Shown here one piece after another: positions 12,380 through 64,000 of a DNA stretch of 64,000 nt. This DNA comes from an uncultured bacterium. GTDB taxonomy: Bacteria > Actinomycetota > Geothermincolia > Geothermincolales > Geothermincolaceae. Under the pieces are notes generated by a model. That model did no database searches and was not told the origin of the DNA. It saw only the letters and a list, made by a program, of their open reading frames with translations. The stretch spans positions 207,491-271,490 of the forward strand of contig CAVXXD010000012.1 of assembly GCA_963765625.1 (NCBI GenBank), given 5' to 3'. How positions within the stretch are numbered: the first letter of the stretch is position 1; each line of letters starts with the position of its first letter. The position numbers were made by a program, and so were the translations under genes.

Positions 12380-12422
12380 CCCGATCAGGTAAAATCAGGG
12401 CAAAAAGAGGCGTGGCGGGAAG

Positions 12423-14970: not shown

Positions 14971-15011
14971 CAGAAAATCAAGATGGGGTCAGACCCCTTC
15001 TTGATTTTCTG
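14971..15011. repeat. REP-like palindromic hairpin with core GGGGTCAGACCCC, immediately after the stop codon of the upstream gene
   Basis: cagaaaatcaagatggggtc-a-gaccccttcttgattttctg, with 1 mismatch in the stem. The next gene starts 3 nt later. Confidence 0.6.
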
Positions 15012-15013
15012 GC

Positions 15014-20979: not shown

Positions 20980-21145
20980 GAGCCATCCTCCTAAGTGTCC
21001 CTTACGGCCCCTCACGCATATCAAACATCGTAATCCATATCGGAATAGTAATAAATAGAGAAAAGTTTGAAACGGTCGGACTATTTGAGTAAAATGATGA
21101 AGATTTATAGCAACTGTCGATTCTCAAGGGAAGGAGAAATAGAAG

Positions 21146-22123
21146 ATGAAGCATCCGAAGGTCGTGCTGGTCTTGTTGCTGACCGTCCTCACCGTCCTGG
21201 CGCTGAACGCCGGCGGGTGCGATACCGGGGAGCCGCCGATCTATCGCAACACATCCAGTCCGATTTACGTTGGCTTGAACGACGAGTTCGTCATAGCCCT
21301 CGAGGCCAACCACACCACCGGTTACTCCTGGCAGCTGACCGAAGAGGTCGATGAGAACATCCTGTCGCTTGAAGGCGTCGAGTATGAGGCCGGCGATTCC
21401 GAGCTGGTCGGTGCGCCCGGCGAGGAGGAGTGGACTTTCAAGGCCGTGGGAGAAGGCCGGACCGAGTTGACGTTCAAGTATGTTCGCCCGTGGGAGACCG
21501 AAGAGGCCGAGGGCGAAGAGGCTGAGGCCGGCAGGCGCACATCCGGGACCGAGACCGTCACCGAGACTCATGCCACTACCACTGAGACCACTACCACTGA
21601 GACCACCACCACCGGGACCGAAGCCGCCACTGCTTCTGAAGAAGAGGCAGCAGCATCGGAAGAGACGATGACCTACACGATTGACGTAGGCCCCTCCGGG
21701 TCGGCCGCCGATAAGGCCACCGAATACAAGTACGAAGACGGCAAGATAATGGAAGACGAGAAGGAAGTCCCGGAAGCGGAGGTCGAGCTGGGTGCCCAGT
21801 TCGCCCTGGTCGTGCCGTCCAACCCCACCACCGGTTACGTGTGGCGCCTGGCCGAGCCCCTCGACGGGAGCCTGCTCATACTGGTGAGCATGGGGTCCGA
21901 GAAGCTCAAGGAGGAAGGCGAGAAAAAAGAGGGCGAGGAGGAAATGGTCGGCGTAGGTTACGACGAGATCTGGACCTTCCGCGCCATCGGCTCGCATGGG
22001 GACGAGGCCACCGAGACCGAGATCACCCTGGAGAAGGTACGGCCGTGGGAAGAGGATACCGCCCCCGTCGATTCGGTGACTCTGACTGTCAAGATAACCA
22101 AGCCCGAGGAGGAGAAGAAATAG
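21146..22123 (+). CDS. Lipoprotein with two tandem chagasin-family (MEROPS I42) cysteine-protease inhibitor domains separated by an acidic Thr/Glu linker
   Basis: Lipobox LNAGGC. Two copies of the chagasin L2 signature NPTTGYxW (ANHTTGYSWQL and SNPTTGYVWRL). Each is followed by the conserved W..KA.G and RPWE motifs. Confidence 0.75.
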   Translation: MKHPKVVLVLLLTVLTVLALNAGGCDTGEPPIYRNTSSPIYVGLNDEFVIALEANHTTGYSWQLTEEVDENILSLEGVEYEAGDSELVGAPGEEEWTFKAVGEGRTELTFKYVRPWETEEAEGEEAEAGRRTSGTETVTETHATTTETTTTETTTTGTEAATASEEEAAASEETMTYTIDVGPSGSAADKATEYKYEDGKIMEDEKEVPEAEVELGAQFALVVPSNPTTGYVWRLAEPLDGSLLILVSMGSEKLKEEGEKKEGEEEMVGVGYDEIWTFRAIGSHGDEATETEITLEKVRPWEEDTAPVDSVTLTVKITKPEEEKK

Positions 22124-24748: not shown

Positions 24749-27153
24749 TCAGGGCGTGAAGCCTATCGAGTCATGTGCCCAGGTGCGGGCGGTATCGTAC
24801 ATGGCCCGCTCGCAGATGACCCCTCCGCCGTTGGAGGTGACCATGGTGGAGACGTTGTAGTCGGTGACGTAGTCGTTGGCTTGAAGGTGACGCGGGAGTT
24901 GGCGGGGATGGAGACATTCTGCAAGTCAGTTGGGGTCTGGACCCCTGCCCCGGTCATCAGCGTAAGGTCCACGGTGACCGCCGCGGCGTTGGGGTTCTGT
25001 ACCAGCACCCAGGTCTCGAAGTCGCCGGCGGTCGCCCCCTCGGCCAGGTACCAGGCGTAGGCCATGCTGGTCGCCCCGATGGAGTCGTGAGCCCAGGTCC
25101 TGCCGTTGCCGTACACGGCCCGCTCGCAGATGACCGGCATGTTCGCCGTGACCATGGTGGAGACGTTGTAGTCGGTGACGGAGTCGTTGGCCTTGAACGT
25201 CTTCCTGGAATTGGCCGGGATGGACACATTCTGCGGCCCGGGCACGGCCCCCGCCCCGGTCATGAAGTCGACGTCGACGGTGACCGCCATGGCGTTGGGG
25301 TTCTGAACCAGTATGTAGGTCTCGAAGTCGCCCGCCGTAGCGCCCTCGGCCAGGTACCAGCCGTAGGCCGGGTCGGTCACCCCGATGGAGTCGTGGGCCC
25401 AGGTGCGGGCGGTGTCGTACATGGCCCGCTCGCAGATGACCGGCATATCCGCCGTGACCATGGTGGAGACGTTGTAGTCGGTGACGGAGTCGTTGGCCTT
25501 GAACGTCTTCCTGGAATTGGCCGGGATGGACACGTCCTGCGGCCCGGGCACGGCCCCCGCCCCGGTCATGAAGTCGACATCGACGGTGACCGCCGTGGCG
25601 TTGGGATTCTGCACCAGCACCCAGGTCTCGAAGTCGCCGGCGGTGGCCCCTTCGGCCAGGTACCAGGTATCGGCCGGGTCGGTCACCCCGATGGAGTCGT
25701 GGGCCCAGGTCCTGCCGTTGCCGTACATAGCCCGCTCGCAGATGACCCCTCCGCCGGTGGGGGTGACCATGGTGGAGACGTTGTAGTCGGTGACGTACTC
25801 GTTGGCCTTGAAGGTGACGCGCGAATTGGCGGGGATGGAAGCCCCCTGCGGTCCGGCCTTCAAGCCGGCCGAGGTCATGAAGTCGACGTCGACGGTGACC
25901 GCCGTGGCATTGGGGTTCTGCACCAGTATGTAGGTCTCGAAGTCGCCGGCGGTCGCACCCTCGGCCAGGTACCAGGTGGGGGCGACGTAAGTCCGCCACA
26001 CGCCGCAGCCCTCCACGGTGGTATCACTGTAGCCTGTGCCGGCCCAGAGATAGCCCTCAAAGACGGCCATGGAGTGGATGGCCAGGTTGTCGTCCAGGTC
26101 GCCGAAGCCGTTGACGTTTCGCTGGTCCCAGGCGGTGCCGCTCCACGACCACACCTCGCAGCCGGTGTCGTCGTCGCTGAGGCCGCAGTAGAGTTCTCCC
26201 CCGTAGATGAGCATATTGCGCACGGCGTCCGGGGGGTCAACCAAAGCCATCCAGGGCGGGGTGAGATCGGTCCAGGAGGTGCCGCCGTCATACTTATAGA
26301 TGGTGCCGCCGTTGCTTGAGTTTCCGATTCCCATGTAGAGTTCGTTATTGTAGACGGCCAGGCTGCGGGCGTCTTCGTTGTTCACGTTGCCGAGACCGGC
26401 GTCAGCCACCTTGGTCCAGTCAGTTGGGTCCGGGCCGTCATGACACCATACCTGGCAGCCGGTGTCACTGTTATAGACTCCCGCGTAGAGCTGGTCTTCA
26501 AAGACCACCATTGCCCGGACTCCCCAGTTATCGATGTCCCCGAACGCGTCGGTATTGGCTTGGGCCCAGTCGGTGCCGTCGTAAGCCCAGACCTCCGCCC
26601 CGGTGACGTCGTTGCCTGCCCCTACCCAGAGCAGGCCGTTGAAGTCGAGCATATACGCAGCCGTGTCGGTGTTGACGTCCCCGAAGCCGTCGGTGTTGGC
26701 CTGGGCCCAATCGGTGCCGTCGTAAGCCCAGACCTCCGCCCCTGTGATGGAATTCATCGTACTCACATAAAGCAGGCCCTTGTAAACGGCCATATGATAA
26801 GCGATGCGGTTGTTGACGTCCCCGAAACCGTCGTCATTGACCTGGACCCAGTCTGCCGGGTCCGGACCGTCGTACCGCCAGACCTGGCAGCCAAGGACAT
26901 TATTGAACGTCCCGGCGTAGAGCTTGCCGTTGTATCCGGCCATTGAGAAGGTGCTTCTGTTGTCGGTGGGGACCGTGATGCCGAAGCCCGGTTCGTTCAC
27001 TTCCTCCCAGGTCAACGGCGCCGCCAGCGCCGCGCCCGTCAGGACGAACGCCGGCAGCAGCAGCGCGGCTGTCAGCAACAGGGCCGCCGCGCCTTTCAAG
27101 AGTCTTTTCCCCATACCTCTCACTCCTTTCATGCTTGCTTTACCTGACGACAC
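24749..27153 (-). CDS. Secreted protein: signal peptide, ~8 beta-propeller-like ~46-aa repeats, then 4 copies of the ~105-aa repeat; frameshift in the last repeat (~24865)
   Basis: Propeller repeats read LY.G..N..TGAEVWAYDGTDWAQANTDGFGD.N. Four copies of the module WYLAEGATAGDFETWVLVQNPNA...ANSR.TFKAND.VTDYNVSTMV....VICERAMY...RTWAHDSIG. After a 1-nt correction at ttcaag|gccaac the last repeat completes to stop 24749..24751. Confidence 0.75.
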
Positions 27154-27314
27154 ATCCGAGGTTTTCCTCCCTAACGGGTTATTTATATCCAGATTGCTTT
27201 GTAAATATGCATCATCCCGCGCCTTCGACCCCGACTGCTGCTGTAACCTTTCGCAGTCCGGGTGTTACAATCAGTTGAAACCGGTTCGACTTTTTCGGCA
27301 AAGGCGGGGTTTAT

Positions 27315-50353: not shown

Positions 50354-50404
50354 CCTCAACACCTCCGATACCACTATATCACCATGTAAAGCTATAATAA
50401 CCAC

Positions 50405-53400
50405 ATGGACGTCTTCAAACACCCGGCCCGGCTGCTGGAAGCGGTCCACTGGTCCAGTGTGGGGGTGATCGCTTTTCTTCCCCTGTACCAGGGGGCGGAC
50501 ATCTCCATCCTGCTCTGGGCGATCATCATGGCATCCCTGGTACTCGTCGGGGCCGCGCTCTTCTTCTATCTCAAGAAGAAAAAGAAGCTCCCCCAGCTCG
50601 GTTACCCGGTCCTGCTCATCCTGGACTCGGCCCTGGTTTCGCTGCTCATCTACAACAGCGGCGGGCTGTCCAGCCCCCTCTACCCCATGCTGATCTTCTT
50701 CGTCATGCTCAACTCGCTGGCGCGGCGCTGGAACCTGGCCCTCGTCGGGACGTTCACCATCGCCTCCTTCTACCTGGCCGCGTGCCTGCTGGAGAACTCG
50801 AGTTCTCTGGGTTACGTCCTGATCGTGAGGGTGGGGGTGATGGTCGTTTCCGCCCTGGTGCTGACCTGGATGATGATCCTGGACACCGAGGCGCACGGGC
50901 GCGGCGCCCGCATGCAGACCCTCTACGAGATCAGCACCTCGCTCTCCCGCTCCCTCGACCTCGAGCTTACCCTGGCCAACATCCTGGAGTCCACGGATCG
51001 GGTGTTCAAGACGGACATCAGCTCCATCCGCCTGATGAACCTCAATGCCAACACCCTGGTGGTCAAGGTCTCCGGCGACCCCGAACACGACCCGGAGGAG
51101 GCGGTGGAGATCGAGCTGGGCGAGGGTTTCATCGGGTGGGTGGCCAAGGAGGGCCGGCCCATCATCGTCAACGACGTCCCCCACGACCCCATGTTCGCCA
51201 TCTTCCCCAAGGCCAAAAAAAAGGTAGCCTCGGTACTGGCCGCCCCCATCTACCTGGGCGACACCGTGGTGGGCGTGCTTTCCTGCGCCAGCTCCAAGCC
51301 GGTCGAGTTCACCGATGACGACCTGCAACTCCTGGTTACCATCTCCAACCTGGCCGCCACGGCCATCGAGCGGGCCGAGTTGTTCGAACGCATCAGTACC
51401 CGCGGCGAGGTCATCGTGGAGAATATCAACTCCAGCATCATCGTCACCGATCCCGAAGGGGGCATCTCCCTCATCAACCAGGCGGCCCTGGACCTGCTGG
51501 ACCTGGAGGAGGACGTCAGGGGCGCCAATGTCCTGGGTCTGCTCGAAGGGAGGATCCGCAATTTCGATATCTTCTGGAAACGGATCGAGGAGGAGTTCGC
51601 GGTCCTGGAAAAAGAAGAGGGCGCCCCGGAAGAAGGCATGAGGGCCGGCCTCTCTCAGGAACTCCGCACCATCGGGCCCAACGAGAGATACCTGCTGGTC
51701 AAGTCCTCGCCCATCCGCGCCAGTTACGACGCCCTTTCCGGCTTCGTCTTCATCCTGGACGACATCACCGAACGGGTCAAGGTGGACGAGATCCGCAACG
51801 AGCTGATGCTGATGATCGCCCGGCGCGTCGAGGAGTTCAGCGCCCTCTACGAGATGGGTTACTCACTGGCCGGCATGAGCGACACCCAGTACATGCTGGA
51901 CCTGCTCATCCGGCGGGCCGTGGAATTGCTGGACGCAAGCTCCGGCGCCCTGGCCCTCTACGACCAGGACCAGGACGTCTTCGTCTACAAGGCGGCGGCG
52001 GGGATGAGGGACGAACTTCCAGGCATCACTTTCAAGGCGGGGGAAGGGCCCTCCGGCGAGGTGGTGGAGCGCCGGGAGTCGCTCCTCCTGGAGAGGTCGG
52101 TGCCGGAAGGGTCGGCCCTGCTGGCCGAGGAGGTCCCCAACGAGATCACCGCGCTGCTGAGCCCCATCGTCTGGAGGGACCGCTCTACCGGCATCTTCGA
52201 GATATACCGGGACGCCGAAGAGCGCCCCTTTTCCGGGGACGACCTCTCGCTGCTGGCCCTCTTCACCAGCCAGACGGCTATCGCTCTCGAAAACGTCAAC
52301 CTCTACCAGATCATGTCGGAGGACAAGACCAGGATGGAGTCCATCCTCCTGTCGGTGGCCGACGGCGTGGTGGCCCTGAACAACGACGCCCAGGTGATCC
52401 TGGTCAACTCGGAGGCGGAAAAGATCCTCAACCTTCCACCCTTCCAGGATATACAGGGGAGCCACGTCAAGGAGGTCATCCGCAACCCGGACATCGCCAA
52501 CCTTCTTTTAAAGAGCCTCTACACCCAGGACGAGCTGGCCCTGGAGATAACCCAGAGCATTCCCCGCAAGCTGATCATGGAGGTGCAGACCTCGGTCATC
52601 GACGACGAGAAAAAGGAGCGGCGGGGCGTGGTGGCGGTGCTGCGGGACATCACCCGCATGCGCGAGCTGGAGCAGGCCAAGTCGGACTTCGTCTCCACCG
52701 TCTCCCACGAGCTGCGCACTCCCCTCACCTCCATTAAAGCCTACACCGCCACCCTGCTGCGGGAGGACGTGACCTTCGACACCTCCACCCAGAGGGAATT
52801 TCTCAGTATTATTGAGGAGGAAGCCGACCGCCTGACCCGCCTCATCGCCGACTTGCTGGACGTGTCCCGCATCGAATCCGGCAAGTTCGAGCTGAAGACG
52901 CGGGAGTTCGACTTCATCAAGCTGATCAACATAGTCCTGGACAAGTTGATGTCGCAGACGGACATCCACGAGGTGGACGTGATCACTCCTGGCAGCCTGA
53001 CCCCGCTGATGGCGGACCCCGACAAGATCGAGCAGGTGCTTATGAATCTGCTCGGCAACGCCGTGAAGTACTCGCCGCGTGGCGGCCGCATCGAGGTGGA
53101 GGTCAAGGAGTATTCCAACAAGATCGAATGTTCCGTCAAGGATTCGGGGGTGGGCATCCCCAAGGAATACCTGGTAAGGGTGTTCGAGAAGTTCAGCCGG
53201 GTGGACAACCGCGCCACCCGGGGCATCGGCGGTACCGGACTGGGGCTCTACATCACCAGGAGTATCGTAGAGGCGCACGGCGGGACCATCTGGGTGGAGA
53301 GCAGCCCCTCCAAAGGGAGCAAGTTCCATTTCACCCTGCCCCTGGACTCCACCTTGAAGAAGAGCCTGCCCAACCCGGACGGTACTTCGCGTGGTCAAAA

Positions 53401-53419
53401 TCGGGACAAGGGCATATAA
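50405..53419 (+). CDS. Multi-sensor histidine kinase: N-terminal polytopic membrane domain, GAF/PAS sensor domains, HisKA and HATPase_c
   Basis: 1004 aa. ~6 TM helices, then three GAF/PAS-like segments, H-box VSHELRTPLTSI, and N/G boxes in the C-terminus. Confidence 0.8.
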   Translation: MDVFKHPARLLEAVHWSSVGVIAFLPLYQGADISILLWAIIMASLVLVGAALFFYLKKKKKLPQLGYPVLLILDSALVSLLIYNSGGLSSPLYPMLIFFVMLNSLARRWNLALVGTFTIASFYLAACLLENSSSLGYVLIVRVGVMVVSALVLTWMMILDTEAHGRGARMQTLYEISTSLSRSLDLELTLANILESTDRVFKTDISSIRLMNLNANTLVVKVSGDPEHDPEEAVEIELGEGFIGWVAKEGRPIIVNDVPHDPMFAIFPKAKKKVASVLAAPIYLGDTVVGVLSCASSKPVEFTDDDLQLLVTISNLAATAIERAELFERISTRGEVIVENINSSIIVTDPEGGISLINQAALDLLDLEEDVRGANVLGLLEGRIRNFDIFWKRIEEEFAVLEKEEGAPEEGMRAGLSQELRTIGPNERYLLVKSSPIRASYDALSGFVFILDDITERVKVDEIRNELMLMIARRVEEFSALYEMGYSLAGMSDTQYMLDLLIRRAVELLDASSGALALYDQDQDVFVYKAAAGMRDELPGITFKAGEGPSGEVVERRESLLLERSVPEGSALLAEEVPNEITALLSPIVWRDRSTGIFEIYRDAEERPFSGDDLSLLALFTSQTAIALENVNLYQIMSEDKTRMESILLSVADGVVALNNDAQVILVNSEAEKILNLPPFQDIQGSHVKEVIRNPDIANLLLKSLYTQDELALEITQSIPRKLIMEVQTSVIDDEKKERRGVVAVLRDITRMRELEQAKSDFVSTVSHELRTPLTSIKAYTATLLREDVTFDTSTQREFLSIIEEEADRLTRLIADLLDVSRIESGKFELKTREFDFIKLINIVLDKLMSQTDIHEVDVITPGSLTPLMADPDKIEQVLMNLLGNAVKYSPRGGRIEVEVKEYSNKIECSVKDSGVGIPKEYLVRVFEKFSRVDNRATRGIGGTGLGLYITRSIVEAHGGTIWVESSPSKGSKFHFTLPLDSTLKKSLPNPDGTSRGQNRDKGI

Positions 53420-53458
53420 TTATTTTGACATCCCATAAATATTCAGGGAGGGCAAGGC

Positions 53459-54403
53459 TTGGAGGTTAGCGAGAGGGCCATCAAGATTCTTCTGGTCGAC
53501 GACGAGCGCAACATCCTGGACATCGTCCAGTTCAACCTGGAGGTTGAAGGCTTCGAGGTGACGACCGCGTCCGACGGCATGGAAGCCCTGCGCGTGGTGC
53601 ACGACGCCGCCCCCGACCTCATCCTCTGCGACATCATGATGCCGGAGGTGGACGGTCTCGAGGTCTGCCGCCGCCTCAAGGCGGACAGCCGCACCAACCA
53701 GATTCCCATCGTCATGCTCTCGGCCAAAGCGCAGTCCCAGGACAAGCTGGATTCCATCGCGGCGGGGGCGGACGACTTCGTCACCAAGCCCTTCGACTTC
53801 AACGATCTGGTGGCGCGGATCAAGGTCAACCTCATCCGGGCCAAGCAGAAGAAGGACGTCAGCCCGCTCACCGGTTTCCCCGGCTCCATCTCCATCGAGG
53901 CGGAGATCAAAACTCGCGTCAAGCGTGCCGAGGCCTTCGCCACTCTCTACGTGGACATGGACAACTTCAAGCCCTTTAACGAGGTCTACGGCTTCCCCCA
54001 GGGGGACAAGGCCATCAAGATGCTGGCCGACATCATCGACGACGCCGTGCGCAAGGCGGGGAACATGGAGGACTTCGTGGGCCACGGCGGCGGGGACGAT
54101 TTCATGATCATCTCCACCCCGGACCGGGCCAAGGCCATCGCCATCTTTCTCATCGAGAACTTCGACCGTCGGGTGACCGCCCTCTACCGCGAGGAGGACC
54201 TCCAGCGGGGCTACTTCATCCGCGTCGACCGGGCGGCCAAGGAGAGCTACATTCCCATCACCACCATCAGCATCGGCATAGCCAGCAACGAGCACCGGAG
54301 GATCACCACCCATTGGGAAGTGGGCGAGATCGCCAAGGAAACGTTGAACTACGCCAAATCCATACCGGGAAGCACTTTCTTTATGGACAGGAGGGTCAAG
54401 TAA
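53459..54403 (+). CDS. Response regulator receiver fused to a GGDEF-type domain with degenerate GGDDF motif
   Basis: TTG start after RBS GGGAGGG. REC domain (LLVDDE...DLILCDIMMP...D, K). GGDEF fold with LTGFPG, DMDNFKPFNE and GHGGGDDF. Confidence 0.7.
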   Translation: MEVSERAIKILLVDDERNILDIVQFNLEVEGFEVTTASDGMEALRVVHDAAPDLILCDIMMPEVDGLEVCRRLKADSRTNQIPIVMLSAKAQSQDKLDSIAAGADDFVTKPFDFNDLVARIKVNLIRAKQKKDVSPLTGFPGSISIEAEIKTRVKRAEAFATLYVDMDNFKPFNEVYGFPQGDKAIKMLADIIDDAVRKAGNMEDFVGHGGGDDFMIISTPDRAKAIAIFLIENFDRRVTALYREEDLQRGYFIRVDRAAKESYIPITTISIGIASNEHRRITTHWEVGEIAKETLNYAKSIPGSTFFMDRRVK

Positions 54404-54445
54404 CCGGGGAGATGGAAGGGTTTGCAGGAGGACCAAAGGGGAGAT

Positions 54446-55219
54446 ATGGAAGAGAAATATAAAGTGCTGGTGGTTGAGGACGACGAATCCATCTCCAACG
54501 TGGTGGAGTTGAACCTGCGCCTGGACGGCTACGAAGTGTTCCTGGCCGCCGACGGGGAGGAGGGGCTGGCCAGGGTGGAGGAAGTCGAGCCCGACCTGGT
54601 CATCCTGGACGTGATGATGCCCAAGGTGGATGGCTGGGAGGTGCTCATGCGCCTGCGCCAGCAGCCGGAGACCAAGGATATCCCGGTGATCATGCTCACT
54701 GCCATCGGCGACGAGCAGTCCAAGGTGATGGGCCTGCGGGGCGGCGCCGACGACTACGTTGCCAAGCCCTTCAGCCCACTGGAGCTGACCGCCCGGGTCA
54801 AGGTCATCCTGGACCGCGTGGGCAAGGCCCAGCGGATGGCGGAGCGCGTGGCGGAGCAGGGGGAGGCCGGCGAAGCCCCCATCAAGCTGGAGCAGATCCC
54901 CGTGCAGAAGGGCGACACCATCATCCTCGTCCCCAAGGAAGACATCTACTTCATCGACACCAAGTACGAGTACGCCAACATCCATACTTACTCCGATTCC
55001 TACCTCACCACCTACAGCCTGACCGAACTGGAGAAGTCACTCGACCGCAACATGTTCTTCCGGACCCACCGCAGCTTCATCGTCAACTTGCGCAAGGTCA
55101 AGGAGATCATCAAGATATCCCGCAACAGCCTCATCGTGGCCCTGACCGACGAAAAGGCCAGCCGGGTGCCGGTCAGCCGGCGGCAGGCCACCCTCTTAAA
55201 GGACGCCCTGGGCATCTAG
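54446..55219 (+). CDS. LytR/AlgR-family response regulator (REC + LytTR DNA-binding domain)
   Basis: REC domain, then the LytTR signature ...FFRTHRSFIVNL..V. Confidence 0.75.
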   Translation: MEEKYKVLVVEDDESISNVVELNLRLDGYEVFLAADGEEGLARVEEVEPDLVILDVMMPKVDGWEVLMRLRQQPETKDIPVIMLTAIGDEQSKVMGLRGGADDYVAKPFSPLELTARVKVILDRVGKAQRMAERVAEQGEAGEAPIKLEQIPVQKGDTIILVPKEDIYFIDTKYEYANIHTYSDSYLTTYSLTELEKSLDRNMFFRTHRSFIVNLRKVKEIIKISRNSLIVALTDEKASRVPVSRRQATLLKDALGI

Positions 55220-55303: not shown

Positions 55304-55513
55304 ATGCAACTCAGCGCGAGGAACGTCCTGAAGGGCAAGGTCAAGAGCATCGAGCATGGCGCGGTCAACTCCGAGGTCGTGGTGGAGCTTCCGGGTGGGG
55401 CGGAAGTGGTCTCGATAATCACCAAGACATCAGCCGAGGGACTGAAGCTGAAAAAGGGCAAGAAGGTCTACGCCGTGATCAAAGCCTCCAACGTCATGAT
55501 CGGTGTGGACTGA
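55304..55513 (+). CDS. Mop / TOBE-domain molybdate(tungstate)-binding protein
   Basis: 69 aa, MQLSARNVLKGKV..I......V.V..GG...V..IT..S...L.L..G..V...IKAS.V, a classic single TOBE domain. Confidence 0.7.
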   Translation: MQLSARNVLKGKVKSIEHGAVNSEVVVELPGGAEVVSIITKTSAEGLKLKKGKKVYAVIKASNVMIGVD

Positions 55514-55563: not shown

Positions 55564-55571
55564 AACTTCGC

Positions 55572-55672
55572 ATTGTAGGTTTTCCGAGCAGACCGGCCTA
55601 AAGCGTAAGCCAGGGCTGCCTGCCGATAGGGTACAACGGGAAACGGTTGTGCCTCCCGCATTTGGAAAGGGA
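55572..55672 (+). promoter_or_regulatory. Candidate molybdenum/tungsten-cofactor (Moco/Wco) riboswitch aptamer, copy 1
   Basis: Leader shares blocks with the 63347..63447 copy: AGGUUUUCCGAGCAG, CCUAA, GCCGAUAGGGUA, GGAAACGG, UGCCUCCCG, UUUGGAAAGG. The CCGAG, GCCUCC and GGAAAGG blocks match my recollection of the Moco-motif consensus. Downstream genes are Mo/W-related. Confidence 0.55.
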
Positions 55673-55695
55673 AACCGGGCCGGCGGACTTTACGT

Positions 55696-55730
55696 GGGCA
55701 TCCTTTCCAGGAGGGATGCCCTCTTGTTTT
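55696..55730 (+). terminator. Intrinsic terminator forming the expression platform of the leader
   Basis: GGGCATCC-tttccaggag-GGATGCCC followed by TCTTGTTTT. The 5' arm CCTTTCCA is complementary to the aptamer 3' end UGGAAAGG, an anti-terminator/terminator switch. Confidence 0.55.
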
Positions 55731-55827
55731 AACGCCGCGTGCCGTCCTTTCCTATGCGGGTAGGGCGGTATTTTTGTTGGGAGAGCCGGCAAGCAAGGCG
55801 GTAAAGAGGATTCTTGAGGAGGAGAAG

Positions 55828-58331
55828 ATGCGAAAGTTCCTAGTGTTAATGACAGTGGCGGCGTTATGTGCCGCACCGGGATTGGGCCTCTTCGGCGCCG
55901 CGGCTTCCCCCCGGCTAGCGCCGGATTCCAGGCGGACGCCCTGTCCGCGGCATCACCGAACTACCGGGTCTTCAGTGAGACCGACCTGAAGTCCATCAAG
56001 AAGATAACCCACAATCTCGATGCCAGCATCACCGAAGGACTGGCGGGCGGTCATTACACCTGTCAGAAGAATTCCGACCCCTTCACCTATTTCGAGCAGG
56101 ACTGGAAGGGAGTAGACCTCTCCTACCTGCTGAACCAGGAAGTGGGCATCAAAACAGGCACCACCGGTATCAAGATCATTGCCGCCGACGGATACGCGGT
56201 GACCCTGACCCTTGCGGACATCGAGGGTTACAATGGGCTGCCGGCCCTGCTCGGCTACCTGCGCGGTGACTCCAGTGACAACAATCCTCCCAACGAAGAA
56301 GGAACCATGGATGGAACCGGGACCTTCCCCTCCGTGGACCCGGTTGATACGAACGTCGAGATCGACGCGGAAGAAGGCCCCTTCCGGCTGGTCCTTCCCC
56401 AGAGCACCATCGGCCCGGATCCCCGCGACGTCGCCTACAGTCCGGTGGGAAGTGGTACCGCCAACTGGAACAAGGCGGTCATGCAGGTGCGCGCCGTCGA
56501 GGTACAGCCGGTATCCCCGGGCATCCCGGCCATCGATTACGAGGCCATTCCCAGCAACCAGGTTGTCGTTTACGGCAACATCGAGAACCGCCATACCTTC
56601 ACCGTCGACCAGCTCAAATCGATCAACCCCGTCAGTGGCACGTATACCTTCAGGAAGTCCTTCGGTGACCCGCCCGAATACAGCGAGGAGAATCACGAAT
56701 GTGCAGGGGTCACTCTGTCCTACCTGCTGGACGATGTCCTCGGGCTGCAGGACGCGGCTGAAAACGTAACGACCATATGCTCGGACGGCTATGGTGTCGG
56801 AAAGGTCATCTCCCTGGAAGACATGAGGCAGGTCGGCTTGAACGGCATGCAGTTCATGCTCTGCCTGAACCTGGACGGGGCGGACCTGGGTCCCGAGCCT
56901 GATGACAAAGGCCCAGTTTACCTGGTCAAGCCGCTGATGACCGATGACCCCCTCGAGACCAACAGTAGCAAATGGATGAAGAACATCAGGTCGATCGTGG
57001 TGAACACCTCATCCGACCCGGGGCCCGATTGGGCCAGGATCCCAACTGACCGCGTCATCGTCAGCGGCCTCTCCAACGCGGGCAACATCCCCAACGAGTG
57101 GTTCCTGCCCGAGGGGTGCACCGGCTTCGGCTTCGAGGAATGGATCCTCATCGAGAACCCCAACCCCTGGCCCACCGACGTCATCGTCGATTACATGATC
57201 GAGGGTGAGGCCATGCAGACCAGGACTTACGACGACGTTGCGGCCGAATCGCGCTTCTCCATCAATGTGGCAGCCGAGATTGGCACGGACAAGAACGTCA
57301 GCGCCAGGGTGGAAGGTTACCACGGCGACTCCATCGTCGTGGAGCGCGCCATGTACTGGGGCGACCGCGACGGCGGTCATTGCTCCGGCGGCATCCAGCG
57401 GGCTCTCAACACCTGGTACTTGGCCGAGGGGTGCACAGCCGATATCTTCGAGACCTGGGTGCTGGTTCAGAACCCGGGCGACACCGACGTCATCGTGGAC
57501 TTCACTCTTATGACTGAAGCCGGTGAGCAGAATCCTGAGGGCCTGCAGGACCAGACCATAGCCGCTAATTCTCGCCGCACCTTCAACCTGGGAGACTTCG
57601 TCCAGTCATATGACGTCTCCACCAGGGTTGTCGCCTCCGGTGACGTCATCGTGGAACGTGCCGTTTACTGGAACGACCGCGACGGCGGCCACTGCGCCGG
57701 CGGCGTTGCCGGCCCCGGTAACGAATGGTATCTGGCCGAGGGGTGTACTAATTCTCCCTTTGAGACCTGGGTGCTGGTGCAGAACCCGACCGCGGCTGCC
57801 GTCAACATCGACATGGACCTGATCACCGACACCGGCGTGGTGCAGGGCCCGCAGGAAGCTATCGCCCCCAACTCGCGCAAGTCCTATAACCTGGTCGACT
57901 ACACCGCGAGTTATGACGTGTCGACAAGGGTCACGGCGGACGGTAGCGGGATCATCGCCGAGCGCGCCGTCTATTGGAACGACCGCGACGGCGGCTCCTG
58001 CGAGAGCGCCAGCGACCACGGCAAATTCAAGGCCTACCTGGCCGAGGGCGCCACGGCCGGCGGCTTCGAGACCTGGGTGCTCTTCCAGAACCCCGGGGCC
58101 GTCGATGCCACCATCAATGTGACCTATCTCACCGATTCCGGCGTGGTCGTCAAGGAACCCTTCGTAGTGGCCGCCGGGACGCGTAAATCAGTCAACGTCA
58201 TCGAAGACGTCGGAGAAAAATACGATGTCTCCACCGTCGTCACGGCCAGCGCGCCGGTGGTGGTGGAGCGTGCCGTCTACTGGGCCGAGCGCATCGAGGG
58301 AAGCTGCGCCAAGGGGCTTTCCGCCTGGTAG
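55828..58331 (+). CDS. Secreted protein with two sulfite-oxidase-fold (molybdopterin-oxidoreductase-like) domains followed by 5 copies of the ~105-aa repeat; frameshift in the signal-peptide region (~55905, C5 run)
   Basis: Signal peptide MRKFLVLMTVAALCAAPGLGLFGAAAS is in ORF 55774.. and the body in ORF 55866..58331. SUOX-like blocks GGHYTCQKNSDPFTYFEQDWKGVDLSYLL ... DGY.V.L.L and FRLVLPQ. Repeats carry WYLAEGCT..FETWVLVQNP ... VVERAVYWNDRDGG. Confidence 0.65.
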
Positions 58332-58478
58332 CGCTGGAAATGACCGCCTGACAAGTGGATTTTCCTCCCACTTGTTCGAAGGGGGCTCTTCGGGGTCCCC
58401 TTCACCTATTTTTATAACTCCCGCGTGTTGGGATAATAAGATAGATAAATAGCAAGCATCGGATAAGAGGAGGCAGGC

Positions 58479-59984
58479 TTGACGGCGAAATCCCGCATAT
58501 TGTTGGTCGTATCCATTATCCTCCTGCTGGGAGCGGCCTTCGCCCTGGTCTTCCGCTATGTCGAAGTGGAGCACAACAGGGTGCTTTCATACGACGACGT
58601 CACCGGGATGCCGGCGGTAAGCGCGAGCTACCACAGCATCAACAACTGGGCCACGGTGGAGGACACCGATTTCACCGGCGTGCCCCTTTACCAGGTCCTC
58701 GAGAAGGTCGGCGTAACCGATGGGGTGGTTCAGATACAGGTGATCGCGCCCGACGGTTATTTCTGGCCGGCCGTGGACGATACCCTGACTCTGGACGAGT
58801 TGCGCACCCCCAACCAGCAAGGGCTCTATGCCCTGCTGGCATGGGAGATGAACGGAGAGACGCTTCAGCCGGAACCGGACGGCTCCGGGCCCCTGCGGCT
58901 GGTCTTGCCCCAGTATGGCGAGGAGGAAGTCAACAAGCCCTCCTGGGTGTCCAACGTCCGCCTGCTCCTGGTCGGGCCACTCGAAGAGGGTTACCAGGCG
59001 CCCGATGCAGGGGAGGTGCCGGTAGAGGAGGTCCGGATAGGAGGGAATGTCCCGCCCGGGTACCCATACCCGCTCTGGCCGGTGGTCCTGATGGGGATCA
59101 TCGGCCTATTGCTGCTGGGGGAAGTCGCGGCAGACAAGCTCAGAATCCGTCAGATGGGGCCCCAGAAGGTGGCTGTTCTGATCCTTGTGGCCACCGTCTT
59201 TTCCGTATCGTTGGCGATGATGGAGGCGGATCGGGCTGTCGCGGAGAGTCCGCAGGCGGTCTTTTCTCTGGAAGAACTGCGGTCCATGCCCGCCTCCGGC
59301 GGACATTACACCTTCCTGAAATCACAGGAGCCCTTCACCTATTACGAAGAGGATTACGAAGGGGTCTCACTCTCTTACCTGCTCCAGGGAGCCACGCAGC
59401 TGGAGCCCGGCGCCGACGGGGTGGTAGTGAGGTGCACGGACGGCTACAAGGTCAGCCTGAGCCTCTCCCAGGCCGTGCAGGTCTACCCCGGAGGCCTCCA
59501 GGCTATAATCGCTTATTCCAAAAGGGGAGAGTCTTTCAAAGGGGATGAAGGGCCACTCCGCCTCATCGTGCCCCAGGCCAGCCCCGGCGACAAGGCCGGC
59601 GGTGGCGACGCCAACACCCCTTACTGCGCCCGCATGGTCTATGCGGTGGAGGTAACGCCGCTGCCGGCCGGCCTGACACCGCCTTCCGCGGCCAGTGTGC
59701 CGGCAGGGTCACTGGCCGTGTACGGGGCGGTCACCGTGCCGGCGGCACCTGAACAGCCGGCGGTCACACCACCGCTGGAACCGGTAGAGGAAACCACGAC
59801 GCAAGCGAATGTGGAGACCCCCGCCAATAACATCGCCGTGACCCCGGCAGCGACGGAGTTTACCCTCAACGGACTGCCCCCAAGCCTCTCGCGCCTGGTG
59901 CTTGGCGTGACCCTGGCGGGAGGGCCCTACCCGCTTACCATGCAGCTCTGGATAGCCTCCGAAAGTGAACGTGGTCCCTCATGA
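58479..59984 (+). CDS. Membrane-anchored protein with two sulfite-oxidase-fold domains separated by two TM helices
   Basis: Domain 1 has GVPLYQVLE ... LAWEMNGETL ... GPLRLVLPQ ... KPSWVSNVRLL, close to the SUOX/YedY core motif LAYEMNGEPL..GFPLRLVVPG. Domain 2 has GGHYTFLKSQEPFTYYEEDYEGVSLSYLL ... GPLRLIVPQ. The putative Mo-ligand Cys is absent from domain 2. Confidence 0.6.
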   Translation: MTAKSRILLVVSIILLLGAAFALVFRYVEVEHNRVLSYDDVTGMPAVSASYHSINNWATVEDTDFTGVPLYQVLEKVGVTDGVVQIQVIAPDGYFWPAVDDTLTLDELRTPNQQGLYALLAWEMNGETLQPEPDGSGPLRLVLPQYGEEEVNKPSWVSNVRLLLVGPLEEGYQAPDAGEVPVEEVRIGGNVPPGYPYPLWPVVLMGIIGLLLLGEVAADKLRIRQMGPQKVAVLILVATVFSVSLAMMEADRAVAESPQAVFSLEELRSMPASGGHYTFLKSQEPFTYYEEDYEGVSLSYLLQGATQLEPGADGVVVRCTDGYKVSLSLSQAVQVYPGGLQAIIAYSKRGESFKGDEGPLRLIVPQASPGDKAGGGDANTPYCARMVYAVEVTPLPAGLTPPSAASVPAGSLAVYGAVTVPAAPEQPAVTPPLEPVEETTTQANVETPANNIAVTPAATEFTLNGLPPSLSRLVLGVTLAGGPYPLTMQLWIASESERGPS

Positions 59985-60515
59985 GCCTGCGCGGGTGGCT
60001 TACGGCCACGGCCCTGGTCTGCCTTATCGCCGGTTGTGCCTTCGCCGGGGCCGGCTGCGGGGATGAGCAGCAGCCGTCACGCTTCTTGAAGAGCGAGGAA
60101 CGCCTGGAAGGGATGTACGAAGCCTGCAAGACTATCGCCATCAGCGACCCGGCGGGAGAGCGCCCTCCCATCCTCGCGGACGAGCTGGCGGGGTATCCCC
60201 GCGTCGATGTGACCACGGAACTGGTGCGGTCCAACGGCATGCGCCTGCCGGGCACCTGGAGCGGCGCGTCGATCTCGGAGGTCCTGGCGAAGCACGGTGT
60301 GGAAGGACCCTTCACCGAGCTGCGCATCGTTGCCTGGGACGAATACGTGGCCAAGGTACCCTTACGACATCGCCATGCGCCCCGACACCATTCTCGCCTA
60401 CGAGCAGGAAGGAGAACCCCTCCCGCGGGAGGACGGCCCGGTGCGGCTGGTGGTGGGGAGCGAGGACGGCTTCTTCTGGATCCGCATGATCGTCCGGCTG
60501 GAAGTGGTGCGTTGA
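59981..60515 (+). CDS. Lipoprotein with a single sulfite-oxidase-fold domain, frameshift near 60360
   Basis: Lipobox LIAGCAF. RLPGTWSGASISEVLAKHGV is in ORF 59981.., then ILAYEQEGEPLPREDGPVRLVVGSEDGFFWIRMIVRLEV in ORF 60297..60515. Confidence 0.55.
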
Positions 60516-60526
60516 AGCGCCTGTCC

Positions 60527-61363
60527 ATGCGCGCCGCCCTGATCTTCGTCCTGTCGGCCTGCCTGACCCTCGCCGTCCTGTCATCGGGGTGCGGAGGTGG
60601 CATCCCCGAGTCGGAGCGGAGCGAACTGATCCTGGCCACTACCACCAGCATGCTCGACTCCGGTCTGCTCGAGGAGTTGGTCGTCCGCTTCGAAGAAGAG
60701 TATCCCTACCGCGTGAAGGCCATCGCCGTGGGGAGCGGCGCGGCGCTGCTGATGGCCAGGCAGGGTGAAGCGGACGTGACCGTCACTCATGAGCCCAATG
60801 CGGAGAAGGAACTGATGGAAGCAGGGTTCGGGGAGAGCTGGCAGGAAGTGATGTACAACGACTTCATCATCGTCGGGCCCCCGGAAGACCCTGCCGGGAT
60901 CGCGGGCATGACCGAGGCCGCGGAGGCCTTCCGGCGGATCGCTGAAAGTGAAAGCTCCTTCTTTTCCCGCGGTGACGCTTCCGGGACCAACGCCATGGAA
61001 CTGGCCACCTGGAGCCGGGCGGGGATAAACCCGGATGGTGACTGGTATCACGAGAGCGGCCAGGGCATGGGGTACAGCCTCCGGATGGCGGATGACGGGG
61101 GAGCCTACACCCTCTCGGACCGGGCCACCTTCATAGTGCTGGAAAAAGCCCTGCGCATGGAAGTTATGGTGGAAGGCGACCCCGACCTCATCAACCATTA
61201 TTCGGCTATAGTGGTGAACCCCGAGAAGTTCTCCGGGCTGAACCACCAGGGGGCCGTGGACTTCGCCAATTTTCTTTTAGGGGACGAGACCCAGGAGTTC
61301 ATTGCCGGATTCGGCTGGGACCGCTATCACCAGCACCTCTTTTACCCCGTCAGCCCGGAATAA
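60527..61363 (+). CDS. tupA: Tungstate ABC-transporter substrate-binding lipoprotein
   Basis: Lipobox LSSGCGG. The TupA anion-binding signature ATTTSMLDSGL is present, with the remainder PBP-type-2-like. No tupB/tupC is adjacent. Confidence 0.7.
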   Translation: MRAALIFVLSACLTLAVLSSGCGGGIPESERSELILATTTSMLDSGLLEELVVRFEEEYPYRVKAIAVGSGAALLMARQGEADVTVTHEPNAEKELMEAGFGESWQEVMYNDFIIVGPPEDPAGIAGMTEAAEAFRRIAESESSFFSRGDASGTNAMELATWSRAGINPDGDWYHESGQGMGYSLRMADDGGAYTLSDRATFIVLEKALRMEVMVEGDPDLINHYSAIVVNPEKFSGLNHQGAVDFANFLLGDETQEFIAGFGWDRYHQHLFYPVSPE

Positions 61364-61793: not shown

Positions 61794-62660
61794 GTGCAAG
61801 GGAACGGGACATTGTCGGAGGTGGGCATGTCTACGGTGGATTGGGAGATAAGCAGGATTTACGCGGACGGCGGGCGCGAGACGCTGCTCGACCGGGTGGT
61901 TGTGGAGCAACCCCTGGAGATCAGCGTCAACGGCATGCCCGTGGTGGCCCTGATGCGCCTGCCCGGCAACGACAAGGAACTGGCGGTGGGCTTCTGCATC
62001 ACCGAGAAGATCATCGTCTCCGCCGCCGACATCAAGCTGCTCAGGCACTGCGGTGAACTGGAGAAGAAGGTTGCCGCAGGCGAAAGTGGGGAAGAGGCGC
62101 AATCTCCCTACGACCGGTCCAACCTGGTCGAGCTGGAGGTGGAGAGGGCCTGCGACACCGGCCGGTTCGCCTCCACTTACGTGGTCCGCACCGGCTGTGG
62201 TGGCGCCGACCTCTCAGCCATGCTGGAGGATTATGCCGGCGTCGTCACCTCGGACCTGCGGCTCAAAGGCGAGGCTGTACACGGCCTGGGGGGCAAGCTC
62301 ACCGCTTGCCAGGAGGTCTTCCGGGGAACGGGCGGGACACACGGGGCGGCCGTCTTCACGGCCGCGGGGGAACTGGTCGTGGCCCGGGAAGACGTCGGCC
62401 GCCACAACGCCCTGGACAAGGTGGTGGGGCACTGCGCCATGGCCGGCATCCCCCTCGAGGACAAGGTCCTCTTCATCTCCGGGCGCATCAGTTACGAGAT
62501 GGCCTTGAAAGCCATCCGCTCCGGTTCCCCGGTCCTGGCCTCACTGGCCGCCCCCACCAGCCTGGGGCTGCGTATCGCCGAGGAGGCCGGGCTCACGGTC
62601 ATCGGCTTCTCGGACGGCCGCCGTTTCAATGTCTACACCCATCCCGGCAGGGTGGAGTAA
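61794..62660 (+). CDS. fdhD: Formate dehydrogenase accessory sulfurtransferase FdhD
   Basis: 288 aa. TGCGGADL catalytic-Cys loop and C-terminal GRHNALDKVVGHCAMAGIPLEDKVLFISGRISYEM. Confidence 0.75.
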   Translation: MQGNGTLSEVGMSTVDWEISRIYADGGRETLLDRVVVEQPLEISVNGMPVVALMRLPGNDKELAVGFCITEKIIVSAADIKLLRHCGELEKKVAAGESGEEAQSPYDRSNLVELEVERACDTGRFASTYVVRTGCGGADLSAMLEDYAGVVTSDLRLKGEAVHGLGGKLTACQEVFRGTGGTHGAAVFTAAGELVVAREDVGRHNALDKVVGHCAMAGIPLEDKVLFISGRISYEMALKAIRSGSPVLASLAAPTSLGLRIAEEAGLTVIGFSDGRRFNVYTHPGRVE

Positions 62661-63288
62661 CAGGCATGAAAGACAGGCCGGCCGGAGTTTCCTGCGCCAT
62701 CCTGGCGGGAGGAGAGGGCAGCCGCCTGCGGGCCGAGAAGGCCCTGCTGACCATCGGCGACCAGTTTCTGGCGGAGACCCTCATCGCCAACCTGCGCCCC
62801 CTCTTCGACGACATCATGCTGGTGGCCAGGAGTGAGCATTCCCCCTTGAGGGCCTTGAGCGGCCCCGGGGTGCGGCTGGTGACGGACATAATGTACCGCA
62901 AGGGTCCCCTGGGGGGCATCCACAGCGCCCTTCACTACTCCGAGAAGCCCGTTCTGCTTCGTCATCGCCTGCGACATGCCCTTTCCCGCCCTCACTCTGG
63001 TTGAGCGGATGGTGCAGCTGGCCGAAGGGCATGAGGCCGTGGTGCCCCGCCGCGGTGAATATATCGAGCCGCTCTTCGCCGTCTATGCGCGGAGCCTGGA
63101 GGAGCGGGCCCGGGTTTTCCTGGAGGAGGGGAAGAAGAAGATCCACGACTTCCTGGACGAGGTGGACGTCCTCTACCTGGAATGAGACGGAGATCGAACT
63201 GCTTGACCCGCAAGGCTTCTCCTTCTTCAACATCAACACCCCCGAGGACCTGGCCAGGGCCAGGGAGATATACCTGAACAAGGAATAA
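62657..63288 (+). CDS. mobA: Molybdenum cofactor guanylyltransferase MobA, interrupted by 2 frameshifts (~62960, ~63185)
   Basis: SCAILAGGEGSRL..EKALL N-terminal motif in ORF 62657... Continues in ORF 62976..63185 (VVPRRGEYIEPLFAVY) and ORF 63001..63288. Confidence 0.6.
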
Positions 63289-63304: not shown

Positions 63305-63333
63305 TTGACACGCTTCTTGTCCGTCATGATAAT
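63305..63333 (+). promoter_or_regulatory. Sigma70-like promoter (TTGACA, 17-nt spacer, GATAAT) driving the second riboswitch-like leader
   Basis: Same -35 hexamer and spacing as the promoter at 55535..55563. Confidence 0.45.
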
Positions 63334-63346
63334 TTTCCTCATGTAT

Positions 63347-63447
63347 TGCAGGTTTTCCGAGCAGCCCCACCTAAGGCCGCGAGGCTAGGGAGAGGTTGCC
63401 GATAGGGTAAGGTTGGAAACGGCCCTGCCTCCCGTGTTTGGAAAGGA
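63347..63447 (+). promoter_or_regulatory. Candidate Moco/Wco riboswitch aptamer, copy 2
   Basis: Same conserved blocks as copy 1, with different intervening sequence. Downstream CUGCUCGG at 63565..63572 can pair with the aptamer 5' block CCGAGCAG. The start codon of a SUOX-domain gene follows at 63617. Confidence 0.5.
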
Positions 63448-63616
63448 AGACCTAAAGCGCTCGCCGGTGAAGGGTATCTCCTCCCTGGAGAAACCTCGAT
63501 CTGCAGGGCTTGGTTTTCTTGCAGACATGCGGCGGCCCCCTTTTCCAACTTCCGAATAACGGCTCTGCTCGGAGCGGATTTCGTCTACTGATGGAAAGCG
63601 AGGAGGTAAGGGGTAT

Positions 63617-64000
63617 GAGAAAGGCACTGACGTTCCTGCTGCTGCTGGTACTGTGCCTGGGCACCATGGTCACCATGGCGGTGACGCCGGTCTCGGGGCC
63701 CGGCGCGGCCGTGGCGGCCACCGGCGAGTCACAGCCGCACTTTTTCCTATAACTACTTGAAGTCGCTACCCGAGACCCACGGGCACTACGGCTTGCAGAA
63801 CAGCGGCACCACCTACTACGAGCAGGACTGGTTGGGAGTCGACCTGCAGTACCTCCTGGATACGGAGGTTGGCCTCGCCGCGGGCACGACCGGCGTCAAG
63901 GTGCAGGCCTACGATTTCGCGAACGGTACGAGCATGACCCTGGACCAGTGCAACGGCAACAGCAGCGACAAGGGCCTGAAGACCCTTCTTGCTTACAAGA
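63617..64000 (+). CDS. Secreted sulfite-oxidase-fold domain protein, 5' part (runs off the window); frameshift near 63750
   Basis: Signal peptide MRKALTFLLLLVLCLGTMV, then in the next frame HGHYGLQNSGTTYYEQDWLGVDLQYLLDTEVGLAAGTTGVKVQAYD, homologous to the domains in 55828..61363. Confidence 0.55.

Follow-up and report, generated by a model that had tools for sequence, protein, structure and literature searches.

A riboswitch-associated cluster of exported, apparently non-catalytic sulfite-oxidase-fold proteins and a TupA-type lipoprotein in Geothermincolia, with a possible role in tungsten or molybdenum acquisition

The window analysed here is a 64,000-nucleotide stretch of contig CAVXXD010000012.1 (positions 207,491 to 271,490), from the genome of an uncultured bacterium of the class Geothermincolia (Actinomycetota). 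It contains four consecutive, co-directional genes for exported proteins at 55828-61363, called G1 to G4, and a fifth, G5, that starts at 63615; the set lies among two riboswitches of the molybdenum-cofactor (Moco) family and a gene for a Mop-type protein (Table 1). Four of the five proteins carry small domains related to the cofactor domain of sulfite oxidases (SUOX), and the fourth gene of the row, G4, encodes a TupA-type tungstate-binding lipoprotein. An initial annotation made from the letters alone had described this gene set and proposed that it forms a dedicated extracytoplasmic molybdenum or tungsten system, either cofactor-dependent or devoted to the capture and storage of oxyanions. 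The gene arrangement was recovered in our analysis, and the two functional options fared differently.

The Pfam family PF00174 is matched above threshold by G2, over two stretches, and by G3. The second SUOX-like domain of G1, at 22-23 bits, stays below the cut-off of 24; G1 domain 1 and G5 have no Pfam match and are tied in by BLASTP, G1 domain 1 to G2 domain 2 (E=5e-22) and G5 to G1 domain 1 (E=8e-17, 47% identical). Six domain copies are visible in the window (two each in G1 and G2, one in G3 and at least one in the cut-off G5) rather than the seven or more counted initially, and the LAWEMNGETL, GPLRLVLPQ and KPSWVSN motifs given as their signature were located in G2 domain 1. In profile comparisons the first domain of G2 (G2-D1; the others are named likewise) matches G3 with 97.6% probability, and the G3 profile finds SorA at 1.6e-12 and the pterin-binding protein PruR at 1.7e-4 among solved structures; the matches of the domains also include SoxC and a Thermus sulfite dehydrogenase. 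By these comparisons the domains are homologous in sequence to the SUOX Moco domain and share its fold.

The three carriers of these domains differ in how they would be held outside the cell. G1, whose full-length orthologues are 45-57% identical, joins two SUOX-like domains of ~150-190 aa each to four beta-sandwich repeats (AlphaFold2 model, pLDDT 86.8) that match TM1070 and the Anabaena sensory rhodopsin transducer (ASRT) fold (TMt 0.7-0.8) as well as Pfam DUF5719. The same DUF5719/ASRT-like repeats end at least two other large secreted proteins of the window, one with a papain-like protease domain and TIG domains (119-3127, +) and one with FnIII/CBM-like parts (24763-27264, -). Since the module terminates such unrelated proteins, it is most likely the generic surface anchor of this lineage, and its fusion to SUOX-like heads is less special than had been supposed. 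Both SUOX-like domains of G2 are predicted to face outside, the second following a transmembrane hairpin and preceding a Pro-rich tail, and a lipobox is present in 37/38 G3 orthologues. The start of G3 overlaps the stop of G2 by 4 nt and G4 begins 10 nt after G3, a spacing by which G2, G3 and TupA appear to be translationally coupled.

Table 1. Features of the cluster and its neighbours, in positions of the window
Feature	Position	Strand	Evidence
Mop/molbindin, 69 aa, single TOBE domain (cytoplasmic molybdate/tungstate-binding type)	55304..55513	+	PF03459 E=1.9e-20
Moco/Tuco riboswitch aptamer 1, P3-less	55570..55688	+	RF01055 67.9 bits
Terminator-like hairpin and U-tract, just 3' of aptamer 1	55696..55731 (hairpin 55696-55721)	+	11-bp stem, TCTTGTTTT tail
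G1, secreted surface protein, 834 aa corrected	55828..58331	+	signal peptide, 2 SUOX-like domains, 4 repeats
G1 SUOX-like domain 1	55953-56522	+	BLASTP to G2 domain 2
G1 SUOX-like domain 2	56547-57014	+	PF00174, below cut-off
G1 repeats, four of ~105 aa	57099-58328	+	DUF5719/ASRT-like
Terminator-like hairpin, G1-G2 gap	58378..58403	+	11-bp stem, then ACCTATTTTT
G2, membrane-anchored, 501 aa	58479..59984	+	PF00174 73.6 bits; 3 transmembrane (TM) helices, 2 SUOX-like domains
G2 TM1	58494-58562	+	
G2 SUOX-like domain 1	58575-58994	+	
G2 TM2-TM3 hairpin	59061-59237	+	
G2 SUOX-like domain 2	59250-59666	+	
G3, lipoprotein, one SUOX-like domain, 177 aa corrected	59981..60516	+	PF00174 53.8 bits
G4, TupA-type tungstate-binding lipoprotein	60527..61363	+	3LR1 (Geobacter TupA) E=3.2e-54; PF12849 E=6e-34
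DUF192 gene, convergent	between G4 and fdhD	-	
FdhD (sulfur transfer to formate dehydrogenase cofactor)	61794..62660	+	PF02634 E=1.2e-68
MobA-like nucleotidyltransferase, across two assembly frameshifts	62666..63288	+	PF12804 E=1.1e-32, corrected sequence
Promoter-like site, near-consensus, before aptamer 2	63305-63333	+	TTGACA-17-GATAAT, 11/12 matches
Moco/Tuco riboswitch aptamer 2, P3-less	63343..63464	+	RF01055 78.3 bits
G5, second secreted G1-like protein, cut by window end	63615..64000	+	signal peptide and SUOX-like domain start

Reading these genes depends on correcting the frame. The reading frames of G1, G3 and G5 each shift once, by 1 nt, where a few identical bases follow one another (a C6 run near 55905, an extra T near 60360 and a T5 run near 63740, respectively). 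Along its whole length corrected G3 matches P0121, which is encoded on an independent contig assembled by Logan, with 100% identity, and 30 orthologues can be aligned with corrected G1 from one end to the other; further shifts occur twice in the MobA gene and once in a diacylglycerol kinase gene (~47500, -). Because corrected G3 exactly matches the protein of the independent assembly and unrelated genes are shifted as well, the frame breaks are assembly errors and not biology, and programmed frameshifting, phase variation and pseudogenes were set aside on the same grounds. Single-base indels at base runs mean that any reading of the window based on open reading frames (ORFs) needs such correction. 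The indel pattern is typical of an unpolished long-read assembly. A GH65 gene (8251-10330, -) and an SDR gene (15005-15928), which match truncated Pfam profiles only, are probably broken too, and in the closest related metagenome-assembled genome (MAG), L003, G1 lies in six pieces.

The label that databases attach to these proteins is "molybdopterin-dependent oxidoreductase", and the corresponding reading would make them genuine extracytoplasmic Mo- or W-pterin oxidoreductases related to YedY/MsrP or sulfite dehydrogenase. In SUOX enzymes the metal is ligated by an invariant Cys (C185 in chicken sulfite oxidase, C102 in YedY), the other active-site residues are R138, H140, Y322 and R450 (chicken numbering), and the Moco and dimerisation domains are complete. 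Folded, cofactor-loaded Moco proteins are exported by the twin-arginine translocation (Tat) pathway, and the Sec or lipoprotein route is incompatible with cofactor insertion in the cytoplasm. The domains of the window are cores of ~140 residues of which ~120-135 align, and the alignments cover SorA residues 122-223, starting after the Cys-bearing hairpin. No Cys occurs near the Mo-ligand position in G2-D1 or G2-D2 (28 orthologues) or in G3 (38 orthologues), where the segments read Y-(R/H)-S-I-N-N-W, H-Y-T-F-L-K and L-(K/V)-R-S-N-G-M, respectively, in a register good to about one residue because it was set from motifs and not from superposed coordinates. Arg/His or hydrophobic residues stand at the position instead, and G1-D1 is the sole domain type with a nearby Cys, in 25/31 orthologues. 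The initial statement that some copies lack the Mo-ligand Cys was thus right about the loss and too narrow about its extent, since no domain type keeps a conserved Cys.

The other hallmarks of an enzyme are missing as well. The dimerisation domain, with the remaining SUOX active-site residues, is not present in the domains. A regular-expression check found an RR-x-hydrophobic motif in no more than 6/31, 6/28 and 8/38 orthologues of G1, G2 and G3, and the N-termini of the window proteins read MRKF..., MTAKSR..., MSLRGW... (with a lipobox) and MRKAL.... The twin-arginine pair is not conserved, so export would follow the Sec or lipoprotein route, and no cofactor-loaded protein would be carried. 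Pfam scans of the window, L001 and L002 found no haem, Fe-S, flavin, cytochrome or MsrQ-like partner in the conserved cluster, and no redox partner stands in the cluster at any related locus; the membrane part of G2, considered as an MsrQ-like haem partner, was rejected because it has just 3 TM helices and no invariant residues. With the enzyme hallmarks all lost, the domains are best taken as binders, not Mo/W enzymes, and catalytically dead as judged from their sequences. The PF00174 matches, the significant homology to SorA, SoxC and sulfite oxidase, the Cys of G1-D1, the adjoining fdhD and mobA genes and the occasional placement of Moco riboswitches ahead of cofactor-using enzymes (PMC2408646; PMC11725836) do speak for an oxidoreductase, yet against the truncated cores, the replaced Cys, the export route and the missing partners we consider one very improbable, and the cofactor-dependent option of the initial annotation is not supported.

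What such binders might bind is suggested by the closest characterised analogue, PruR, which the initial annotation does not mention. PruR is a secreted, Cys-less and degenerate SUOX fold with a truncated cleft that carries out no catalysis and binds pterins, sandwiching the ring between Tyr and Trp with an Asn hydrogen bond (Y104, W160 and N102; PMC11194511); its pterin contacts comprise an Asn-x-Tyr motif, the C-terminal Trp and a PW motif. PruR is the only solved relative of the same size and is matched almost end to end, with marginal similarity (E 1e-4 to 1). G2-D1 and G3 have an invariant D-G-Y motif and C-terminal Trp, equated with the PruR contacts by motif position only, and in G1-D1 both are almost invariant; in G1-D2 the Asp and the Trp are retained, and G2-D2 has Cys for Trp. 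Since PruR binds pterins, a pterin ligand is a serious rival to the oxyanion favoured below: the domains would bind a pterin in the vestigial Moco cleft and serve the capture, scavenging or sensing of extracellular pterin (molybdopterin, a breakdown product of Moco or of the tungsten cofactor (Tuco), or a secreted W/Mo-chelating pterin), while TupA would handle the metal. That the controlling riboswitch senses a pterin cofactor is consistent with this account. However, no pterin transporter is encoded at the locus, the co-transcribed TupA carries a complete tungstate site, and the conserved residues are common to the whole SUOX fold and may be structural; together with the Cys of G2-D2 and an equivalence to PruR that was drawn without superposition, these points make a pterin ligand on balance unlikely. 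Nor does the conserved cluster contain a DcpA-type GGDEF/EAL or TorS/BaeS-type membrane partner of the kind that PruR would call for, its conserved partners being TupA and Mop. Directly upstream of Mop (50390-55219) lie a large GAF/PAS-type histidine kinase, a GGDEF response regulator and a LytTR response regulator, which were considered as a PruR-DcpA-like partner and rejected: they are not syntenic in L001 or L002, and the GGDEF protein (53429-54403), likewise missing from those two loci, is cytoplasmic with no periplasmic domain.

G4 matches a second TupA structure (5MY5, 1.5e-49) besides the one in Table 1, and the PF12849 match assigns it to the PBP_like_2 fold. The ATTTS motif noted initially lies at 60635, and SRGDASGTN is also found in the window protein. 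Among the 19 copies listed for its group, TTTS is kept (STTS in 2), as are VGSGAAL (LGSGAAL in 1) and SR(G/A)DASGT (RAD in 3), and GQGMG occurs in 16/19. TTTS and R-G-D-x-S-G-T are the anion-binding motifs of TupA, and on these motifs G4 is a canonical TupA whose tungstate site appears complete.

Whether G4 also lacks a tupBC partner, as the earlier description of an orphan TupA had it, is a different matter. In the 64-kb window tupB gave no tblastn match, and a TupC query matched only a generic ATP-binding cassette (ABC) ATPase at 35.7 kb, which agrees with that description as far as it goes. In L002, however, a complete tupABC set adjoins the cluster, and in L003 and L004, the two closest relatives, one follows the TupA gene at a distance of 4-6 kb. 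In the latter two this distance reaches beyond the point at which the window ends, so G4 cannot be called an orphan, and that part of the initial annotation is unproven. No tupABC was found within 10 kb at the other loci, among which L005 shares the downstream genes of L002 on a contig that starts past the tupABC position. In L004 (14807-15742), the closest intact relative, a riboswitch matching the second one of the window precedes a P-loop ORF, perhaps MobB-like, and is followed by a TupA-like gene and tupABC; in the window the G1-like G5 occupies the place of the P-loop ORF. TupA-like lipoproteins with degenerate motifs are encoded in L004 (15733-16632) and in L002 (15417-16247, the same gene as L005 6257-7042), with ATAPYPYETGL or AATSDLENSGI for ATTTS and SCGDGSDLN or FRSDGSGTS for SRGDASGT; the ligand that they bind may have changed.

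Both leaders that had been called riboswitch-like are Moco riboswitches, scoring well above the 36-bit gathering score of the RF01055 covariance model, and the P3 positions of the model are deleted in both alignments. The P3-less variant was proposed by Regulski et al. as a class that responds to Tuco (PMC2408646); it is correlated with tungsten use and controls tupABC and tungsten enzymes (PMC2408646; PMC11725836), as in Eubacterium limosum, where it governs tupABC and a tungsten aldehyde oxidoreductase (PMC11725836). The class is a proposed one, its ligand specificity never having been directly shown (PMC2408646), and both aptamers of the window are candidates for the tungsten-cofactor type. 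The Mop gene lies upstream of aptamer 1, and the 3' strand of this aptamer, GGAAAGG, can alternatively pair with a downstream CCUUUCC; from this pattern the hairpin that follows is presumed to be the expression platform of an OFF switch. Downstream of aptamer 2 pattern matching gave only a weak terminator candidate. In L001-L022 there are 43 RF01055 matches of 60-81 bits, nearly all ~118-125 nt long and one of 129 nt.

The cluster is conserved as a unit in a narrow set of organisms. An exhaustive HMMER search of 1.84 billion representatives returned 121 proteins at E<=1e-3, and homologues of G1 and G2 come from Actinomycetota MAGs only, named at lower rank as Candidatus (Ca.) Solincola, Ca. 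Anoxymicrobiaceae or Ca. Geothermincolia except for L010 and two loci labelled Acidimicrobiales. G2, G3 and TupA are contiguous wherever the contig is long enough (22 loci), with G1 adjacent, upstream or divergent, in 19/22 and Mop nearby in most, as a copy 64-91% identical. An aptamer of ~119 nt precedes G2 or a co-directional G1-G2 unit in 21/22 loci, a divergent G1 usually has its own, and extra riboswitch-led G1 paralogues occur in L015, L016, L018 and L021. TupA synteny is held even though the genomes are only 44-70% identical. The riboswitch, the invariable and coupled TupA, and Mop tie the module to tungsten or molybdenum supply. In this respect the dedicated extracytoplasmic, riboswitch-controlled Mo/W-linked system of the initial annotation is supported. 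No description of it turned up in the searchable literature, in agreement with the initial annotation. The parts are of known kinds (riboswitch, TupA, Mop, PruR-like fold), and their conserved combination is undescribed as far as we found.

Beyond this set the fold is seen in other settings. The distant L027 shares the Mo/W context, with a TOBE protein, a 72-bit riboswitch and a G1-like gene. L023 (1419-8291) and L026 (8-10614) encode distant Cys-less SUOX-like lipoproteins with an NKPxWV motif and have no Moco riboswitch; their clusters contain instead a fusion of an RnfG-like flavin mononucleotide (FMN)-binding domain (FMN_bind) with a SUOX-like domain, a NapH/NosR-like Fe-S membrane protein and an ECF-type transporter, which points to an extracytoplasmic setting of redox chemistry or cofactor handling for the fold in these other, low-GC-looking organisms. 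Related Cys-less domains are also found in giant surface proteins with SLH, beta-propeller, CARDB or TIG parts. Given such varied contexts the fold is an extracellular module of wider occurrence, and it need not bind one and the same ligand everywhere. The contexts also raise the possibility that the proteins of the window are co-regulated envelope components with a role outside Mo/W supply, such as adhesion, wall remodelling or extracellular redox chemistry with a non-Moco ligand, as the giant surface proteins and the riboswitch-free FMN-binding and NapH-like neighbourhoods might indicate. Such a role is difficult to reconcile with TupA synteny in every locus long enough to show it, with translational coupling and with riboswitch control of both G1 and G2 even where they are divergently arranged, all across genomes this dissimilar, and we regard it as improbable.

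We propose tentatively, as an account that may well be correct though we would stop short of calling it probable, that the locus is a lineage-specific accessory module for the acquisition of tungsten (or molybdenum), repressed by the cofactor, non-catalytic and tiered, which feeds a dedicated TupA. When the W- or Mo-pterin cofactor is scarce, the P3-less riboswitch would let transcription proceed into G1-G2-G3-tupA and, separately, into G5. The products would be exported unfolded through the Sec or lipoprotein pathway and come to rest at three depths: four beta-sandwich repeats would keep G1 and G5 on the cell surface, G2 would sit in the membrane with its two domains outward, and G3 and TupA would be lipoproteins. 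Like PruR, the ~140-residue heads would be degenerate SUOX folds that bind without catalysing, and a scarce W/Mo species would presumably be bound in what remains of the cofactor and substrate cleft. R/H52 of G2-D1 aligns with the invariant R83 of G3, and this conserved basic residue would sit at about the position of the former Mo centre. A tetrahedral oxyanion is favoured as the ligand because the partner is an intact tungstate-binding protein, because of this basic residue and because the pocket of the ancestor accommodated an anion of that shape; the invariant Arg, Lys and Asn residues, including the Arg/His near the former Mo-ligand Cys, could hold it, and oxyanion capture or storage, the second option of the initial annotation, is plausible for domains with these features. 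The location of the proteins at three depths suggests that the ligand is captured outside and passed inwards, and the heads may concentrate the W/Mo species or pass it to TupA, which would dock on a TupBC permease encoded elsewhere while Mop buffers the anion in the cytoplasm.

Several observations weigh against this proposal. PruR, the only characterised protein of this domain type, binds pterins and not oxyanions (PMC11194511), and residues of the pterin-stacking type (D-G-Y and the near-C-terminal Trp) do not vary in most domain types. The need for a relay is not obvious, given that small anions pass through a Gram-positive wall by free diffusion. Tuco riboswitches also govern functions that are not tungsten-specific, such as iron transporters in E. 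limosum (PMC11725836). The FMN-binding and NapH-like neighbours of the distant relatives hint that the fold may carry a redox ligand. Finally, the strong terminator-like hairpin between G1 and G2, beside an AT-rich stretch, makes riboswitch control of G2-TupA dependent on read-through. This hairpin could act in attenuation or mark a boundary inside the operon, and G2-G3-tupA may here be attenuated or separately promoted; in most relatives G2 has its own riboswitch.

A related function would be protection rather than uptake, with the surface domains sequestering excess or wrong oxyanions, for example by discriminating molybdenum from tungsten or binding thiometallates. The many domain copies displayed outside the cell, the Mop storage protein and the several degenerate TupA paralogues of the relatives are in keeping with a buffer or shield of this sort. 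An OFF riboswitch that answers to the finished cofactor is nevertheless more in line with uptake in times of shortage than with a defence against excess, and no observation here bears on selectivity, which leaves such sequestration with little likelihood. The acquisition module can conversely be extended to a relay resembling the Isd system, in which surface G1/G5, membrane G2 and lipoprotein G3 of Ca. Geothermincolia pass a W/Mo species to TupA as an oxyanion or in a pterin-bound form (molybdopterin or Tuco released by other cells). We consider the relay doubtful; if true, it would be the first case of a Mo/W nutrient being captured at the cell surface and, in the pterin version, the first bacterial salvage route for the pterin cofactor.

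Tungsten and molybdenum are trace nutrients for anaerobic carbon metabolism, in which formate dehydrogenase and aldehyde oxidoreductases depend on them, and what is known of their uptake from picomolar to nanomolar concentrations, in sulfidic sediments above all, extends no further than the ABC transporter. Should the acquisition module be real, cofactor-repressed extracytoplasmic binders working with TupA would constitute an unrecognised first step of this uptake and a new, testable regulon member for the P3-less riboswitch class. It would mean that the recently defined PruR-type fold, which serves signalling in Proteobacteria, is also used by Gram-positives to handle nutrients, and would correct a systematic mislabel (molybdopterin-dependent oxidoreductase, YedY catalytic subunit) that inflates molybdoenzyme counts in metagenomes.

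The remaining genes of the window add context. The Mop/TOBE, fdhD and mobA neighbours listed initially are all present, the last after frame correction. fdhD is syntenic in L003 and L004 only and, like the MobA-like gene (intact homologue at L004 14158-14799), is a neighbour and not part of the core. No family of Moco biosynthesis came up in Pfam scans of 30 other ORFs of the window. A protein with two chagasin-family (I42) cysteine-protease inhibitor domains is encoded at 21143-22123 (+), in the same window as the papain-like protein, and two GH25 lysozyme-like genes lie side by side at 11516-13169 (+).

The locus can be compared with several known systems. From the SUOX-family enzymes (sulfite oxidase, SorA, SoxC, YedY/MsrP and assimilatory nitrate reductase) its domains keep the Moco-domain core only, without the conserved Cys ligand, dimerisation domain, electron-transfer partner or conserved Tat signal. 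The likeness to Isd/NEAT is a functional analogy, namely a small binding domain repeated in wall-distal and membrane-proximal proteins beside a lipoprotein substrate-binding protein, with all components co-regulated by nutrient supply; the fold is unrelated, there is no sortase signal and transfer from domain to domain is no more than a hypothesis for this locus. Extra extracytoplasmic SUOX-fold proteins belong to none of the Tup systems described, and G4 is a dedicated paralogue, ~48% identical to the TupA of the tupABC operon of Ca. Solincola (L002), without a permease or ATPase of its own. It is nonetheless a canonical TupA by its motifs, a P3-less RF01055 aptamer controls tupABC in E. limosum and here in L002-L004, and a Mop/TOBE protein is a usual companion of Mo/W transport loci. 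With PruR the domains have in common a secreted, minimal SUOX fold without the Mo Cys. PruR (7kou, 7kom, 7kp2 and 7rkb; Agrobacterium, Vibrio and Klebsiella) is a single soluble periplasmic domain that signals from an operon with the cyclic di-GMP enzyme DcpA, whereas the domains described here are multiplied, tethered at three depths and placed with TupA under a Moco/Tuco riboswitch in Actinomycetota.

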